Shown here one piece after another: positions 4,831-26,829 of a DNA stretch of 64,000 nucleotides. Below the pieces are notes generated by a model. It saw nothing but the letters and a program-made list of their open reading frames with translations, was not told where the DNA came from and searched no databases. Made by a program: the position numbers and the translations under genes. Source of the DNA: an uncultured Candidatus Saccharibacteria bacterium (GTDB lineage: Bacteria; Patescibacteriota; Saccharimonadia; Saccharimonadales; Saccharimonadaceae); contig CALLZM010000002.1 in NCBI GenBank assembly GCA_937858705.1, positions 2,046-66,045 of the forward strand, given 5' to 3'. How positions within the stretch are numbered: position 1 is the first letter of the stretch; every line of letters begins with the position of its first letter.

Positions 4831-6371
4831 GTAGTCTCCCCTGTAAATGCGTGGTGTATTATCTTTGCTTTAGCCGGACCCACTGCTTTCGCAATATCGG
4901 CTTCCGTGGCTTTCTGTATAGCCGCAATACTACCGAACGCTCTCATGAGCCGTCGTTTTGTTACTGGTCCTACGCCTGCTATATCGTCAAACGCACTCTT
5001 TTTTTGTCGTGTACGACTGATGGTTTCATGATAGCTTATCGCAAAACGATGACTTTCGTCGCGAATTCGCTGAATAAGCTTCGTGATGTCACTGTAGCGA
5101 AAGGTTTTATCGTCTGCCTGAAAGTTTTTCGCGTGGCCCGTTACCTTAAAGCGACCTAATTGTAAATTGATTACAATAAAATCGCCCTCTGGTATAGCTG
5201 AGGCTCCGAGCTCGGGGGTGAGTATAGACTCATGCACTATTACTTTGGAATTTCGGTGAATCATCAATTCTTCTTGGCGTTTCGCTACACTAATAATGGG
5301 AATATCGAGCCCTTTTTCATCTCTCGCCCGAATGGCCGCCATAAGCTGCCCTTTACCTCCATCGATCAATAGTAGATCTGGCGTGCCCCAGCTTTTTATA
5401 TTTCGCTCGCTCAACCTACGAGATAGTGCTTCGTATATGTTCCCCGTGTCATCATTTTTCTCAGACACTTTAAATTTACGGTACTCCGCCCTATTGCTTA
5501 CACCATTCGTAAACACCACCATACTAGCAACCACGCCTCGACCACCAGTATGCGAAATATCGAACCCTTCTATTCTTGCAGGTATGGTTGGTAATCCCAA
5601 TATATCCGTAATATCAGACAACGCCTGGTCTTTCGAGATGTCAAGATGTTCCTTGTCGCCAAAAGACACTCGTCTCTGCAACTCTTGCATAGCCAGCAAC
5701 CGATTGCGAAGCTTAGCGGCCTTTTCAAAATCCTGCTCAGCTGCCGCCAGTTTCATAGTCTGCTCAAGTTCCCTGACGATCTTTTTACGATTGCCCTTTA
5801 TATAGCTTATGAGCTGTCGCAGATCTGCTTTGTAGCTCATAGGTCCATCACTCAAACGGGGAGAAAGTCCAATATCTTCATCGAGCTTGGACTGCCCGGG
5901 ACGAATTTCTTTCGTAAGGTACGGAAAGATACGGCGCAAATAGCGAAGCGCTCGCTTCAGCGCAAAACCGTTATAAAACGGGCCGTAATATTCGGCGCCA
6001 TCATCAGCTGGATTTCTCGTAAACGACACAATTGGCCATTCGCTCTTCATATCGATGCGCACAAATGACTGACTCTTATCGTCTCTTAGCAATACATTAT
6101 AGCGAGGCATATAGCGCTTTACCATCTCACTCTCGAGAAATAAAGCATCCACTTCGCTCTCTGTTTCTATCCATTCAGTATCGACTATTTCTGCCACAAG
6201 CGCCATCGTTTTATTGTCGTGTGGTCGACTCACCTGGAAATACTGGCGCACTCGATTCTTCAATATTGCCGCTTTGCCAACATAAATCACTTCACCAGTA
6301 GCAGATTTATGGAAATATACCCCTGGTGATAGCGGCAACGATTTCAACTTTTCTTCGAGTTGCGTATTCAC
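4827..6371 (-). CDS. uvrC: excinuclease ABC subunit C
   Basis: 514 aa with a GIY-YIG N-terminus (GVYFHKSATGEVIYVGKA...RV..Y) and a C-terminal HhH (IAGVGPVTKRRLMRAFGS). Confidence 0.9.
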   Translation of the reverse strand: MNTQLEEKLKSLPLSPGVYFHKSATGEVIYVGKAAILKNRVRQYFQVSRPHDNKTMALVAEIVDTEWIETESEVDALFLESEMVKRYMPRYNVLLRDDKSQSFVRIDMKSEWPIVSFTRNPADDGAEYYGPFYNGFALKRALRYLRRIFPYLTKEIRPGQSKLDEDIGLSPRLSDGPMSYKADLRQLISYIKGNRKKIVRELEQTMKLAAAEQDFEKAAKLRNRLLAMQELQRRVSFGDKEHLDISKDQALSDITDILGLPTIPARIEGFDISHTGGRGVVASMVVFTNGVSNRAEYRKFKVSEKNDDTGNIYEALSRRLSERNIKSWGTPDLLLIDGGKGQLMAAIRARDEKGLDIPIISVAKRQEELMIHRNSKVIVHESILTPELGASAIPEGDFIVINLQLGRFKVTGHAKNFQADDKTFRYSDITKLIQRIRDESHRFAISYHETISRTRQKKSAFDDIAGVGPVTKRRLMRAFGSIAAIQKATEADIAKAVGPAKAKIIHHAFTGETT

Positions 6372-6390
6372 TTCTATACTATAAGCTTAT

Positions 6391-6723
6391 TTATGCGTGC
6401 TTTAGTAGCGTATCTTGCAACACTCCAGCAGGAACCATGCCGACAAGCTGGTCAACGACTTTACCGTCTTTATACACCTGCATGTTCGGAATACCTTGTA
6501 CACCATGTTCCTGGGCTAATTGGCCATTCTCAGGAGACGCCTCAATATCAATTTTCACCACATCGACTTTATCGTCCATCTGGTCACCCACTTGCTGTAA
6601 AATAGGTGCCATAGCGCGACATGGCGGGCACCACTGCGCCCAAAAATCGACCAAAACAACCTTCTGGCTATTGATGACTTTTGCTTCAAATTCTGATTTA
6701 GTTGTCGTGTTTAGTAAACCCAT
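6391..6723 (-). CDS. trxA: thioredoxin
   Basis: 110 aa with active site WAQWCPPCR. Confidence 0.9.
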   Translation of the reverse strand: MGLLNTTTKSEFEAKVINSQKVVLVDFWAQWCPPCRAMAPILQQVGDQMDDKVDVVKIDIEASPENGQLAQEHGVQGIPNMQVYKDGKVVDQLVGMVPAGVLQDTLLKHA

Positions 6724-6763: not shown

Positions 6764-7147
6764 TCATACTTGGCACTCTTTGCAGCGCCCCTTTACTAGC
6801 ACTGGTCCATCAAAACGAAAATTATTATACTTTTTCCTCATGGCGCTCAACACTTCAAGAGAAATCGTCGCATCGCACAATTGCCCGCAATCATTGCATT
6901 CCAGATGGCTATGAGGCAATAAGTTATTGTCAAATCGCATACAGCCATCTTTTGTCGGTGGAGCAATAGAAATTTCACCATCGTACATCATGCGTGTCGT
7001 GATGCGATGGATAGTCGTAGCACTCAGCTGTGAATGGTATTGCCTGCAATACTCTAGGATGTCATTATTTGTGACATGATTTGCCCGCTTGAGATATTGT
7101 CGAACCAGGGCAAGATATTTACTATCTCGTCTTGTAGCTATTGCCAT
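6764..7147 (-). CDS. Fur-family metalloregulator
   Basis: 127 aa with a winged-helix segment (SATTIHRITTRMMYDGEI), HSHLECNDCG and a C-terminal GRCKECQ Cys pair. Confidence 0.75.
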   Translation of the reverse strand: MAIATRRDSKYLALVRQYLKRANHVTNNDILEYCRQYHSQLSATTIHRITTRMMYDGEISIAPPTKDGCMRFDNNLLPHSHLECNDCGQLCDATISLEVLSAMRKKYNNFRFDGPVLVKGRCKECQV

Positions 7148-21572: not shown

Positions 21573-22962
21573 ACTCAACCCACAACTGCAATTCTTGTAG
21601 AATAAACTGCTGGGATTCGTCAGCTGTTTTCGACAAAGCCACCAATCGATTTTGAAAACTGGGAAGCTCCTCTGTTAATCGCTTTATACGCCATGCCTCC
21701 CAACTGGCCATTTCATCTTCGCTCAAAGTTTTTGGATAGTTCCTTGCCTTATAATGCACGAGAAGCTCCGGCAGTCGCTCGTCGCTAAACTCTGGGCGAA
21801 AATCCGCCAATTGCCGTTCAGTAGTATTGCGTACTGCTTCAATGCGTATTTTGTCCCGATCACTCACGAAACCATCATACAACTGCGCCTCTGGATCCAG
21901 CGATGGCGGATACGCTGGCTTCGACTCAAACACCGTTCGTATATTCTCGGCAAACTCAGGGTGTGCCAGTAGCGTCTGAAGATGCTTTTGTACAATAGCC
22001 TCGTCGAGCCCAATACTATCCCAGCCATTTTCCTGTGCCAGCACCCCCATCGGTGCGACAGCTGGACAGCGATTGTATTGCAGCTGCTTCACTGGCAAAG
22101 GCACGAAATTCTCTGCTTGCCGCTCTTCCCACGGCGCAAACAATTTTTCTGCCATTTGCTTTTGGCTAAGCTCCACAAATGGCGCCGGATCATGGCGCAA
22201 GTCATACGCCAATACATTGCCGTAGGGCGCACTAGTCAGCGGAAAAGCAACCGTTGTTTTGGCAAATTGCTTATCGTACCGACCACTCGTATACACAAAC
22301 GGTCGCTTGTCGTCGAGGTTCACTAGCTTTTGGATTTCTTTCTTGTCTCGAAGTCGCAATAAGTAATCAAACAGCTGTGGCTGAGCTTTTTTTATGAGCC
22401 GTGTCACATCTATGAGCGCCTCGACATCACTCAGCGCATCATGCGCATTTGCGTGTGCTATACCATTCGCTTTCGTGATGAGCTCGAGGCGATTTGTTGG
22501 TTCACCCTTGTCGTCAACTGGCCACTCGATACCTTTTGGCCGCAGTGCTCGCGTCATCCGCACAACATCCAGCAAATCCCAACGACTCCGCCCCTCCTTC
22601 CACGACCATTCATACGGATCGTGAAAAGTACGCCAGAGCAAATGGCGGATAAATTCATCGTCAAATCGTACACTATTAAAACCAACGATAATTGTATCTG
22701 GCGTAAACCACTCCTCCACCAGCTTCCTGGCAAACTCAGCCTCTGTCCAGCCGTTTTCGAGTGTTTGCTGGGGTGTGATACCAGTTACCAGGCTTGCATC
22801 TGGGCTAGGAATAGTATCGTCATTCAGCGCCACTAGCTCATTGACAGGTTCGCCGATTGGCTGCAAATTCATGTCAGTCCGCTGCCCAGCAAACTGCATA
22901 ATTCTATCTTGCCTGGCATTCAGACCAGAAGTTTCGAGGTCGTAGAAGAAAAAAGTTTTCAC
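21553..22962 (-). CDS. sbcB: exodeoxyribonuclease I
   Basis: 469 aa. DEDDh N-terminus FFFYDLETSGLNARQDRIMQFAG, HDALSDV, and a SH3-like/helical C-terminal region. Confidence 0.85.
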   Translation of the reverse strand: MKTFFFYDLETSGLNARQDRIMQFAGQRTDMNLQPIGEPVNELVALNDDTIPSPDASLVTGITPQQTLENGWTEAEFARKLVEEWFTPDTIIVGFNSVRFDDEFIRHLLWRTFHDPYEWSWKEGRSRWDLLDVVRMTRALRPKGIEWPVDDKGEPTNRLELITKANGIAHANAHDALSDVEALIDVTRLIKKAQPQLFDYLLRLRDKKEIQKLVNLDDKRPFVYTSGRYDKQFAKTTVAFPLTSAPYGNVLAYDLRHDPAPFVELSQKQMAEKLFAPWEERQAENFVPLPVKQLQYNRCPAVAPMGVLAQENGWDSIGLDEAIVQKHLQTLLAHPEFAENIRTVFESKPAYPPSLDPEAQLYDGFVSDRDKIRIEAVRNTTERQLADFRPEFSDERLPELLVHYKARNYPKTLSEDEMASWEAWRIKRLTEELPSFQNRLVALSKTADESQQFILQELQLWVESILPID

Positions 22963-22992
22963 TACCTATAGTGTAGCAGATATACTGGAGAT

Positions 22993-23331
22993 ATGAATGA
23001 ATTACCCGTTGTTAACCGTTCTCAAGAATTATACGGCGCTGTGCGGCCTATTATCAATAAACTACCAAGCCTCGAAAAGCAAACCATTGGTTGTCGAGTT
23101 GAAGACGGTATATTGTCATTGCTCGAATCATTTATCATGGCAAAGCACGCGCCAAAAGCCCACAAGACAGTATATTTATTGCGCGCAACTGCCCAGATAG
23201 AACTGCTTACCTTTCAGCTTCGCCTTTTACTCGAGCAGAAGTTGGCAAACGAGACAACCACGCACCAACTCCAAGCCAAACTCGTCGAGATTGGCCGCAT
23301 GTGCGGCGGGTGGCTGAAATCAACACAATAA
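22993..23331 (+). CDS. avd: Avd-like accessory variability determinant (four-helix-bundle family)
   Basis: 112 aa, all-helical and basic. The segment ...LRATAQIELLTFQLRLLLEQ...LQAKLVEIGRMCGGWLKS parallels the Bordetella phage bAvd C-terminus (...AQVLIAEVGRILGSWIAR, recalled). SD GGAG lies upstream. Confidence 0.7.
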   Translation: MNELPVVNRSQELYGAVRPIINKLPSLEKQTIGCRVEDGILSLLESFIMAKHAPKAHKTVYLLRATAQIELLTFQLRLLLEQKLANETTTHQLQAKLVEIGRMCGGWLKSTQ

Positions 23332-23332
23332 A

Positions 23333-23358
23333 CCTCCCTATCCTGTAGGAAAGGGAGG
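23333..23358. terminator. hairpin CCTCCCT-A-TCC-TGTA-GGA-A-AGGGAGG between the avd stop and the TR 3' end
   Basis: Read directly. On the minus strand it is followed by TTTATTGTGTT. It starts 2 nt after the avd stop codon (23329-23331). Confidence 0.6.
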
Positions 23359-23365
23359 TCATTAC

Positions 23366-23482
23366 TTGTTGCCTCGTCGAGAGACCAACGCCGATGCTCG
23401 GATTGCCCTTGCCATTCGACCTGTCCAGCTTGAGCTGACTATCGTTCGAGTTGACATTACCGACCATCGAGTCACCGTCCGC
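23366..23482 (-). repeat. DGR template repeat (TR)
   Basis: Aligns without gaps to 23715-23831 (offset 349). It has 30 adenines on the minus strand. In the VR frame it reads ADGDSMVGNVNSNDSQLKLDRSNGKGNPSIGVGLSTRQQ. Confidence 0.85.
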
Positions 23483-23544
23483 ACTATATACCCTGGCACT
23501 TCATACTCTACGGTTCATTCGCAAATAAAGAGAGTTACAGGCAC

Positions 23545-23573
23545 ACTATACCAGGCGCACGCGGGGCATACAA
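23545..23573 (-). promoter_or_regulatory. candidate promoter TTGTAT-17-TATAGT driving the minus-sense TR RNA
   Basis: -35 is the reverse complement of 23568-23573 and -10 that of 23545-23550. It lies ~60 nt upstream of the TR 5' boundary. Confidence 0.45.
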
Positions 23574-23702
23574 ATTATTTATTTTCGATTGCCAGGCACT
23601 CATAGATTTCAGCCCTACTCGGCAAACCAGCACCCAGGATGACAATACGAAACCAAAACCAAGTATACCACAAAAGGGGAGAAAGGAGAGAAGAGCTAAG
23701 GC

Positions 23703-24542
23703 CTAAGGGCGCTTAGCCGGCCCCGCCGAGAGACCAACGCCGACGCCCGGATTGCCCCGGCCACCCGACCCGCCCAGCTCGAGCTGACCACCGCCCGAGC
23801 GGACACCACCGACCAACGAGACGCCGACCGCGTCCTTTGTCCGACCGAGAGTTGGGTCACGCACAAAACCACGGTTGAGTACATAGTCGAGGCTTGTCGG
23901 ATCAAGCGCATCATCAACTTTTTCGCCGCGAATACGATCCATGATGACCATCATCAAAACCGCACGCGTCGAAAGATCCCAGGCAGTATGACCAGGATGG
24001 GCTTGCTCAAAGCCTTGTCCCGCGTCGTCAAGCCACTCTAGCTGCGTTTGTTTGCCCCGATCCCACCTGTCTCTTGCATAAGGGTCAAAAGGCAGACCAA
24101 GGGCATGCAATATCGGGTCTACGCCCGTATCTTCTTTGTGCGTAAAGAGAGCTAGACGACCTTCATTAATCTCTGGCCCGCCGTCTAATGCACTGCACAC
24201 ATAACCACCGCTACGACGAGATTGCTTCAGAGGCCACAGACCATCATAACGATATACCGTCGCAACTCCTTGCGGACGCTTGCCTTCAGCTCCACGCACT
24301 AGATCCTCAAATGTGGCGACTGCCGCTGCCAACGCTGGATATAGCCGGCCATCGTAGCCGAGGCGACCTACATCCTCATAATCTTCAGCGAGGCCTTTCG
24401 ACGGGGTAAAACCAAGCCACTCAAGTGCCTCGTTCGAGACATCAAGCGCTTCCTGTGTATCAGGCGCTCCACGACGGAATGGTAGATCTGGCGATGTGGA
24501 GGCCGGTCGCCGCCCAGTAGATTGAGTTACTTCAAATGCCAT
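23703..24542 (-). CDS. DGR target protein with C-terminal variable region
   Basis: 279-aa ORF whose last 39 codons are the VR. No signal peptide or TM was seen. The N-terminal ~240 aa has no family I recognise. Confidence 0.8.
   Translation of the reverse strand: MAFEVTQSTGRRPASTSPDLPFRRGAPDTQEALDVSNEALEWLGFTPSKGLAEDYEDVGRLGYDGRLYPALAAAVATFEDLVRGAEGKRPQGVATVYRYDGLWPLKQSRRSGGYVCSALDGGPEINEGRLALFTHKEDTGVDPILHALGLPFDPYARDRWDRGKQTQLEWLDDAGQGFEQAHPGHTAWDLSTRAVLMMVIMDRIRGEKVDDALDPTSLDYVLNRGFVRDPTLGRTKDAVGVSLVGGVRSGGGQLELGGSGGRGNPGVGVGLSAGPAKRP
23715..23831 (-). repeat. DGR variable repeat (VR)
   Basis: 28 of 117 positions differ from the TR, and 26 of these are at TR adenines (coding strand). Encodes AVGVSLVGGVRSGGGQLELGGSGGRGNPGVGVGLSAGPA and ends 12 nt before the stop codon. 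Confidence 0.85.
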
Positions 24543-24583
24543 GAGGGTCCTTTCTTTAGCATATAGTTACATTGTATCATATC

Positions 24584-26829
<2,246 letters not shown>

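Follow-up and report, generated by a model that had tools for sequence, protein, structure and literature searches.

The window, as we call the whole 64,000-nucleotide (nt) stretch of DNA from an uncultured Candidatus Saccharibacteria bacterium analysed here, carries a diversity-generating retroelement (DGR). On the minus strand its parts follow one another in the order obg, reverse transcriptase (RT), target gene with its variable repeat (VR), a gap of 237 nt, template repeat (TR) and a hairpin, after which the transcribed strand runs into the 3' end of avd, a plus-strand gene that ends 37-39 nt from TR. Apart from the exact length of the gap, this is the order given in a preliminary description of the locus. 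The most interesting feature is the gap itself, which holds a conserved leader that looks like a permuted version of the spacer (Sp) of the Bordetella phage BPP-1 DGR. The parts on which the argument rests are these:

22993 to 23331, plus strand: avd, convergent with TR, encoding an Avd homologue
23369 to 23482, minus strand: TR, the 114-nt repeat partner of VR
23718 to 23831, minus strand: VR, at a 349-nt offset from TR, with the core of its IMH (the site for initiation of mutagenic homing), GCGGGGC, at 23726-23720
23703 to 24542, minus strand: the diversified target gene of 279 amino acids (aa), taken from the open reading frame (ORF) list, with VR at its 3' end
24584 to 25537, minus strand: the DGR RT (RVT_1), with IGNLTSQ and YGDD in its translation

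The locus is a genuine chromosomal Saccharibacteria DGR of a type known from the candidate phyla radiation (CPR). The RT matches RVT_1 (2.3e-15) and its nearest NCBIfam model is that of group II intron RTs, at a score under the model cutoff; with its motifs and its position beside TR and VR, it is of the DGR/group-II-like type. Of the 114 positions in the repeat pair, 25 are not the same in TR and VR, and all but one of these (24) are adenines of the minus-strand TR. The claim that the TR RNA is minus-sense and meets avd head-on is supported. At the 3' boundary of the repeats VR has an IMH (GCGGGGC) where TR has an IMH* (ACGAGGC), and VR ends 15 nt before the target stop codon. The proposal that the ORF at 22993-23331 encodes an Avd homologue was likewise correct, as its product matches Pfam bAvd (49.4 bits, cutoff 40), NCBIfam DivGenRetAVD (E=5e-18; 65.3 bits, under the curated cutoff of 80) and, over its full length, the BPP-1 Bbp7/Avd protein in the PDB (E=0.0017). 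No second VR was found within the 64-kb window. The target protein has no sequence match in Pfam, NCBIfam or the PDB, and the target proteins of 11 related loci with a called target gene have no match in Pfam.

Searches with the RT returned 712 homologues at E<=1e-40, and the named ones among the top 120 are almost all from Saccharibacteria or Saccharimonadales. Our comparison set comprises 13 related loci with RT identities of 45-70%; structural counts given below over 13 loci refer to the window and 12 relatives. A genome scan yielded one close relative (L001), and a metagenome scan with the RT alignment only distant RTs (<=39% identity, most 24-32%) that were unsuitable for covariation. Twelve of the 13 related loci have a VR and a TR whose mismatches are adenine-specific, and in all 12 avd converges on TR. 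Ten of them share the window's order of RT, target, TR and reverse-strand avd; the other two (L069 and L071) have the order target, TR, reverse-strand avd, RT. Wherever there is a repeat pair, the VR-TR gap is noncoding and 223-344 nt long. The conserved module is thus target/VR, gap, TR and reverse-strand avd, and convergence of avd on TR is the rule in this group. The same is true of CPR DGRs at large: in architecture B3 of Wu et al. 2018, TR-(avd)-RT, avd lies on the reverse strand directly downstream of TR, and B3 accounts for 90% of their CPR DGRs. The window resembles B3 in its CPR host and in an avd that is reverse-strand, immediately downstream of TR and convergent with it, and L069 and L071 have the B3 order itself; in the window and the ten relatives that share its order, the RT gene is found upstream of the target rather than downstream of avd. 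The convergent avd singled out in the preliminary description is therefore real, but the layout is non-canonical only relative to the Bordetella phage.

The alignment of the relatives shows conserved blocks in the VR-TR gap. The elements that emerge from it, in the order in which they would be transcribed, are:

23587 to 23647, minus strand: P0, a tentative domain with a stem closed by TATTGTCA/TGGCAATC, present in the minimum free energy (MFE) fold of the 334-nt RNA
23561 to 23575, minus strand: motif M, the 5' strand of P1 (AUUUGUAUGCCCCGC), a candidate cis-primer strand that contains TTGTAT
23556 to 23560, minus strand: the conserved GUGCG linker, whose invariant G at 23560 lies opposite an invariant template G at 23378
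23548 to 23555, minus strand: the 5' strand of P2, a Stop-like duplex, this strand being the putative analogue of the cPRT-Stop Sp strand of BPP-1
23509 to 23532, minus strand: P3, a hairpin enclosed by P2, with a UGCG tetraloop at 23523-23520
23492 to 23499, minus strand: the 3' strand of P2, about 10 nt upstream of TR
23364 to 23377, minus strand: the 3' strand of P1, made up of the TR 3' end (IMH*, ACGAGGC) and its downstream flank, a candidate template strand

The gap of about 237 nt is a conserved structured leader with three covarying helices, P1, P2 and P3. Motif M has the consensus (G/A)CCCC(A/G)CGUGCG, lies 75-96 nt upstream of TR and is unique in the window (23567-23556). Together with its 8-nt 5' flank it pairs with the last 7 nt of TR and about 7-8 nt beyond to form P1. 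P1 was scored on an alignment that has no gaps and takes only the conserved cores as anchors: 76.4% of its cells are paired as against 61.5% in shuffles, the covariation is 0.463 as against 0.192 (a value reached by 0 of 500 shuffles), and in 9 of the 14 pairs both partners have changed. With the partner slid by 1-3 columns, the pairing falls to 36-52%. When partners were swapped between loci by permutation, the M flank proved to be matched to the TR flank of its own locus (p=5e-5) and not to the VR flank (p=0.30). The G.U pairs of P1 fall on the minus-sense strand, which places the helix in an RNA of TR polarity. RNAalifold recovers P1, as does the MFE fold of the window's 334-nt RNA, there with a 1-nt bulge. 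Columns G19 and G28 of our alignment A2 are invariant.

In P2, 86.4% of the cells are paired and both partners have changed in 6 of the 8 pairs; its duplex energy is -12.8 kcal/mol between strands of the same locus and -8.5 kcal/mol between strands of different loci (p=3e-4). All nine pairs of P3 show changes on both sides (permutation p=5e-5), and its loops over the 13 loci are UGCG (eight), CGCG (three), UGUG and CGUG (one each). In a plain MAFFT alignment of 11 loci, P1, P2 and P3 together are 80.1% paired (65.2% in shuffles), with 24 of 31 pairs changing on both sides and a covariation of 0.563 (0.282 in shuffles); on none of these measures did any of 500 shuffles reach the observed value, and slid controls gave 39-47%. 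Single-sequence MFE folds recover P2 and P3 in most of the 13 loci. The hairpin after TR had been put forward as the only room for a spacer in this element, a claim that did not survive the finding of conserved, covarying RNA elements in the gap upstream.

In 11 of 13 loci the 7 nt at the core of M complement the VR IMH perfectly, and this complementarity is maintained through compensatory changes (AU 10, GC 3; GC 7, AU 4; CG 12, UA 1 at two pairs). From VR to 200 nt past TR, the exact complement of the IMH 7-mer occurs once in these 11 loci, 77-97 nt upstream of TR, and downstream of TR it occurs in no locus. Against TR, the central position of the core never pairs in any of the 13 loci (C.A in 12, C.C in one). 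The repeats themselves are fixed in their difference here: opposite the IMH* position VR has G in 13 of 13 loci, where TR has A in 12 and C in L064. In L066 there is in addition a VR A against a TR G inside the P1 3' strand. Such fixed differences are expected if this stretch is never copied, and they fit a start of cDNA synthesis 5' of the duplex. M is probably a primer strand, because it is an IMH complement, because it has a parallel in BPP-1, because invariant Gs face each other at its end, because the elements around it come in the corresponding order, and because the positions it covers appear to go uncopied. We found no description of an upstream primer in a DGR RNA in the literature searched. 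With a view to the IMH-complement rule in other DGRs, automated TR/VR detection was run on loci L002-L060, and only L002, which was uninformative, and the BPP-1 control (L074) gave a repeat pair. A scan of viral contigs with TTGCCCCACGTGCG gave 120 matches, none of them near an RT or Avd homologue, and these were set aside as chance.

The extent of the RNA depends on where transcription starts, for which there are three candidate sites:

23545 to 23573, minus strand: TTGTAT-17-TATAGT (TTGTAT at 23573-23568, TATAGT at 23550-23545), with hexamers that flank motif M
23662 to 23695, minus strand: a polypyrimidine tract and an extended -10 box, TGgTATACT (-10 at 23667-23662), a candidate promoter of the TR RNA
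24571 to 24600, minus strand: a strong sigma-70-like promoter that precedes the target gene, TTGACA-18-TACAAT with TG, scored by the scan as an 11/12 match

The first of these had been described as a good promoter for a discrete TR RNA of about 200 nt. Its hexamers are present, but the match is what chance would give: 8 of 12 consensus positions and 3 of 6 in the -35 hexamer, under the scanner's threshold, with 697 sites of at least this quality on both strands of the window, or about one per 184 nt. No conservation of the hexamers is seen in 12 related loci, where the conserved sequence is that between and under them. The -35 hexamer TTGTAT lies inside the 5' strand of P1, and the -10 hexamer TATAGT overlaps the 5' strand of P2 by 3 nt. 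We judge that it is not the promoter of the functional RNA: the site is at chance level and unconserved, and a transcript begun near 23538 would lack the 5' strands of both helices. Reading M as an operator (the CACGTG palindrome) within this promoter was rejected because of the covariation of the M flank with the TR flank and because of the unconserved hexamers.

The TGgTATACT box is a better candidate for the start of the TR RNA. A TAnnAT box stands 30-61 nt past the VR end in 11 of 13 loci, in seven with an upstream TG; the exceptions are L071, where it lies at 109 nt, and L066, which has none. On this evidence the TR RNA is likely to be about 330 nt long, from about 23655 to 23322 on the minus strand, rather than about 200 nt. 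The conserved polypyrimidine tract (CUCUUCUCUCCUUUCUCCCCUUUU, 20-25 nt, 23672-23695), placed between the IMH hairpin and the -10-like box, is found at the equivalent position in all related loci and may be a U-rich terminator tail, an upstream element of the promoter, or related to homing.

At its other end, the RNA would run into the following:

23332 to 23359, minus strand: a hairpin with a UACA loop, 12 of 13 pairs formed, -19.6 kcal/mol, z=-4.7
23321 to 23331, minus strand: a U-rich tract, UUUAUUGUGUU, which follows the hairpin and overlaps the avd stop codon

None of 200 shuffles folds as well as this hairpin, which starts 4 nt past P1 and is followed by TTTATTGTGTT; a terminator scan flags it on the minus strand. 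The region 23359-23321 thus has the stable stem-loop and U-rich tract of an intrinsic terminator on the transcribed strand, and most likely ends the TR RNA just before antisense avd. It resembles a rho-independent terminator in its GC-containing 12-bp stem, its U-rich run and its detection by the scan on the minus strand, and is unlike one in that it lies 4 nt past a presumably functional RNA helix, overlaps the stop codon of a convergent gene and has an interrupted U-tract (UUUAUUGUGUU). In position and size the hairpin is similar to the Avd-binding stem-loop found 3' of TR in BPP-1. Between the end of TR and the stop codon of avd, however, there are 2 to 122 nt across 13 loci including the window, and in L067 (2 nt), L062 (about 7 nt) and L065 (9 nt) there is no room for an intergenic hairpin at all. 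Four of the 13 loci, namely the window, L001, L061 and L066, have clear hairpins with U-rich tails between TR and avd, and L063, L064 and L068 have weak ones. Their sequences are unrelated, and this holds even for the window and L061, the relative closest to it. The hairpin also has no complementarity to the TR 3' end. A hairpin that is absent or unrelated in most relatives points to a fast-evolving terminator and not to a conserved priming element, and an essential role is disfavoured because it is unconserved. Most plausibly it is a lineage-specific device that shields avd from antisense transcription. Thus, of what had been proposed for the hairpin, a strong hairpin followed by a T-tract is indeed there after TR, whereas its part as priming spacer is not borne out.

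Taken together, these results incline us, with rather more confidence than doubt, to a minus-strand RNA of about 330 nt in which the functional non-template part lies 5' of TR, M serves as primer and the hairpin is the likely terminator. In such an RNA, M (23575-23561) would pair with the TR end and its 3' flank (23377-23364), looping out TR and forming the template:primer duplex. The invariant G that follows M would face the invariant template G, so that cDNA synthesis would start at about 23378. After the 5-nt GUGCG linker, P2 would join the segment that follows M to the segment about 10 nt upstream of TR, enclosing the UGCG-loop hairpin P3. The core of M, perfectly complementary to the VR IMH and carrying a C.A mismatch to the TR IMH*, would leave the cDNA-attached primer RNA favouring annealing to VR. 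Finally, the hairpin and U-tract at 23359-23321 would terminate the RNA before antisense avd.

The most instructive comparison is with BPP-1. In the ribonucleoprotein (RNP) of this phage, Handa et al. find the primer strand, a short linker, the Stop-duplex strand and a tetraloop hairpin in that order, with the Stop partner just upstream of TR and Sp G57 facing the first templated base, TR G117. We checked the BPP-1 sequence and found that the primer strand defined there by experiment, Sp48-56 (AGGUGGUCA), complements VR118-126 exactly, whereas with TR118-126 it forms only six Watson-Crick pairs and one wobble. The better match of the BPP-1 primer to the VR IMH was noted by Naorem et al. 2017, in whose proposal the cDNA carries the primer RNA, and pairing of this RNA with the IMH determines which way homing goes. 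The window RNA is thus like that of BPP-1 (avd 3' end, TR, Sp) in several respects: a template:primer duplex formed by the last TR nucleotides; a primer strand that is perfect to the VR IMH and imperfect to the TR IMH*; a G after the primer nucleotide that faces a template G (Sp G57 and TR G117 there, 23560 and 23378 here); a second duplex close to the primer (2 nt after it in BPP-1, 5 nt here) with its partner about 10 nt upstream of TR; next, a tetraloop hairpin of the UNCG type; an A-rich linker before TR; and an Avd homologue with a group-II-like RT. P2 and P3 correspond in form to the Stop duplex and tetraloop hairpin of BPP-1 and may be their functional equivalents. The great difference lies in topology. 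The primer and Stop strands of the window are 5' of TR, 75-96 nt upstream, where those of BPP-1 are 3' of it, so that the one RNA would be a circular permutation of the other. In addition, avd of the window is on the opposite strand and provides no sense RNA upstream of TR, only about 55 nt lie between the two Stop strands, and the putative priming nucleotide is C (or the next G) and not A. No counterpart of the long bRT-binding stem or of the Thumb Ring was identified in the window leader. Nor is there a conserved complement downstream of TR that would correspond to a BPP-1-type primer strand; the conserved, covarying complement is the one 75-96 nt upstream.

In the msr-msd RNA of retrons, the nucleotide that primes synthesis is 5' of the template, together with one strand of a long-range duplex whose other strand is at the template's 3' end. 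The permuted topology proposed for the window RNA is the same, and the RT would likewise start beside the duplex and copy back towards the primer. Unlike retrons, the window has an RT of the DGR/group-II type and an Avd cofactor, and its template is a protein-coding repeat subject to adenine mutagenesis, whose product would integrate into VR and not remain as multicopy single-stranded DNA (msDNA).

Several observations weigh against this interpretation. Since the 13 loci are related, not every compensatory change among them is independent, and it is from these very sequences that the structure was derived. P1 of the window, in fixed register, has two C.A mismatches and only 4 of 8 flank pairs, and needs a 1-nt bulge to extend. 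P0 did not reach significance in the comparison of own-locus and cross-locus pairing (p=0.06). The extended -10 box TGgTATACT has no -35 match, while the target gene has a strong promoter and no clear terminator stands before the leader, so that read-through is possible. M is better matched to VR than to TR, which leaves room for a role at VR, whether on DNA or on read-through mRNA. Furthermore, Handa et al. report downstream stem-loops and upstream/downstream duplexes in many DGRs, CPR ones among them, and P1 could be what they call a Stop duplex.

The alternative that survives best, and to which we give a real though clearly smaller share of belief, leaves the structure as it is and removes only its promoter: leader and TR would form the 3' untranslated region (UTR) of a target mRNA started at 24600-24571 and ended by the hairpin. 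This would make use of the 11/12 promoter upstream of the target (L001 has a comparable one, TTGACT-17-TATAAT, upstream of its own target gene), and between VR and leader the window has only a weak hairpin with a C/U-rich tail. Against it are the conservation of the -10 box 30-61 nt past VR in 11 of 13 loci and the strong terminator-like hairpins that separate VR from the leader in L001, L062 and L068. The latter are long, near-perfect hairpins with a T-tract directly after the -10-like box; that of L001 is at 6909-6952, with a second terminator-like hairpin at 7051-7070 just before motif M. They may be attenuators or terminators of the target mRNA.

It is unlikely, to our mind, that the element has the canonical topology after all, with transcripts reading through into antisense avd, which would hold the primer and protein-binding elements, and with P1 and P2 as Stop-type or scaffolding duplexes. 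Handa et al. predicted elements just downstream of TR in 207 of 278 Avd-containing DGRs from taxa that include CPR. Theirs is the one comparative survey in the literature searched, and it reached from 40 nt before each TR to 100 nt past it, so that M lies outside. The antisense 3' end of avd is also conserved and GC-rich, with duplex energies comparable to those of M, and several relatives have no terminator between TR and avd. However, the best downstream partners of TR are scattered from +10 to +132, no exact IMH complement lies downstream in any locus, a variable avd codon in the candidate region shows no covariation with TR (as read by eye), the conservation there is accounted for by the C-terminal motif of Avd, and in the window a strong hairpin and U-tract intervene. 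A specific hairpin or primer antisense to the avd 3' end was rejected on such grounds: its stem GCCGC...GCGGC tracks the codons of the Avd motif G-R-M-x-G-G, without TR covariation and with scattered partners.

Still less probable is the reading in which M acts at VR and is no primer, pairing with the IMH in read-through mRNA or in single-stranded DNA as a long-range target-site hairpin or as a processing or insulation signal. It would account for a core that is perfect to the VR IMH, with compensatory changes, and mismatched to TR, and the mRNA could come from read-through, as the target promoter is strong and M is preceded by no clear terminator. The M flank nevertheless covaries with the TR flank and not with that of VR, the experimentally defined primer of BPP-1 shows the same preference for VR, and a loop of 150-250 nt would be unlike known IMH hairpins.

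The proposal of the preliminary description, an RNA of about 200 nt started from TTGTAT-17-TATAGT near 23538, with the hairpin as both priming spacer and avd terminator, is very improbable, for although the hexamers, hairpin and U-tract all exist and the hairpin occupies the position of the first Sp stem-loop of BPP-1, the promoter is at chance level and unconserved, the transcript would lack the 5' strands of the covarying P1 and P2, and the hairpin, absent from L062, L065 and L067 (TR 2-9 nt from the avd stop) and of unrelated sequence elsewhere, does not complement the TR 3' end. As an account of the sequence that description was accurate except for the weight given to the promoter, and its interpretation is partly supported.

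BPP-1 is the one system in which reverse transcription by a DGR has been dissected, and there all non-template requirements are 3' of TR. How priming could proceed where a convergent avd follows TR directly, sometimes after 2 nt, is a matter for which we found no explanation in the literature searched. An upstream primer, if it is real, would explain the layout of CPR elements, would mean that the RNA of a DGR RNP can be circularly permuted, and would make of a compact RNA of about 330 nt and two small proteins a testable and engineerable unit. The M:IMH complementarity would, under the same model, lend independent evolutionary support to the idea that pairing of the primer RNA sets IMH recognition and the direction of homing; the compensatory changes by which 11 of 13 loci keep the 7-bp match would be the first evidence from phylogeny that recognition of the IMH is RNA-guided. 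On the wider proposition our judgment is evenly balanced: DGRs of the convergent-avd type in Saccharibacteria and other CPR may use a permuted, retron-like RNA with primer, Stop and protein-binding elements upstream, no need of a downstream spacer, and homing guided by pairing of the cDNA-attached primer RNA with the IMH. Should the model be wrong, what is left is an ordinary CPR DGR.

Two other features of the locus complete the inventory:

23694 to 23718, minus strand: a small hairpin past the IMH that spans the target stop codon (-13.6 kcal/mol, z=-1.4)
25534 to 26817, minus strand: obg, upstream of the RT gene

The small hairpin has the position of the known DGR target-site hairpin, and an equivalent recurs in the alignment of the relatives (as read by eye), though its z value alone is non-significant. 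An Rfam search of 22800-24700 gave nothing at gathering score and two sub-threshold chance matches only. The 10-mer TCTCGACGAG has just two copies in the 64-kb window, where 0.07 would be expected. Both are on the minus strand, one at 23373-23382 at the TR 3' end and the other 92 nt downstream at 23281-23290, antisense to the avd codons K-L-V-E-I; they form a direct repeat and not a complement, and are partially conserved in relatives. The one related locus without a TR/VR pair detected within 3.5 kb (L070, RT identity 46%) has an upstream reverse-strand ORF of 103 aa with no Pfam match, and may be a degenerate or differently organised element. In L061 avd is separated from the exonuclease I gene by a gene for a CdiA_C-domain protein (6089-6487), which has no counterpart at that position in the window. 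The GTG start codon of the RT gene at 25537 overlaps the obg stop codon (25534-25537), which places the RT at the 3' end of a housekeeping operon. The obg-RT junction is the same in L061 and L062. In five other relatives it is uvrB that precedes the RT gene; only a few nt separate the two in L063, L064, L067 and L072, and about 300 nt do so in L065.

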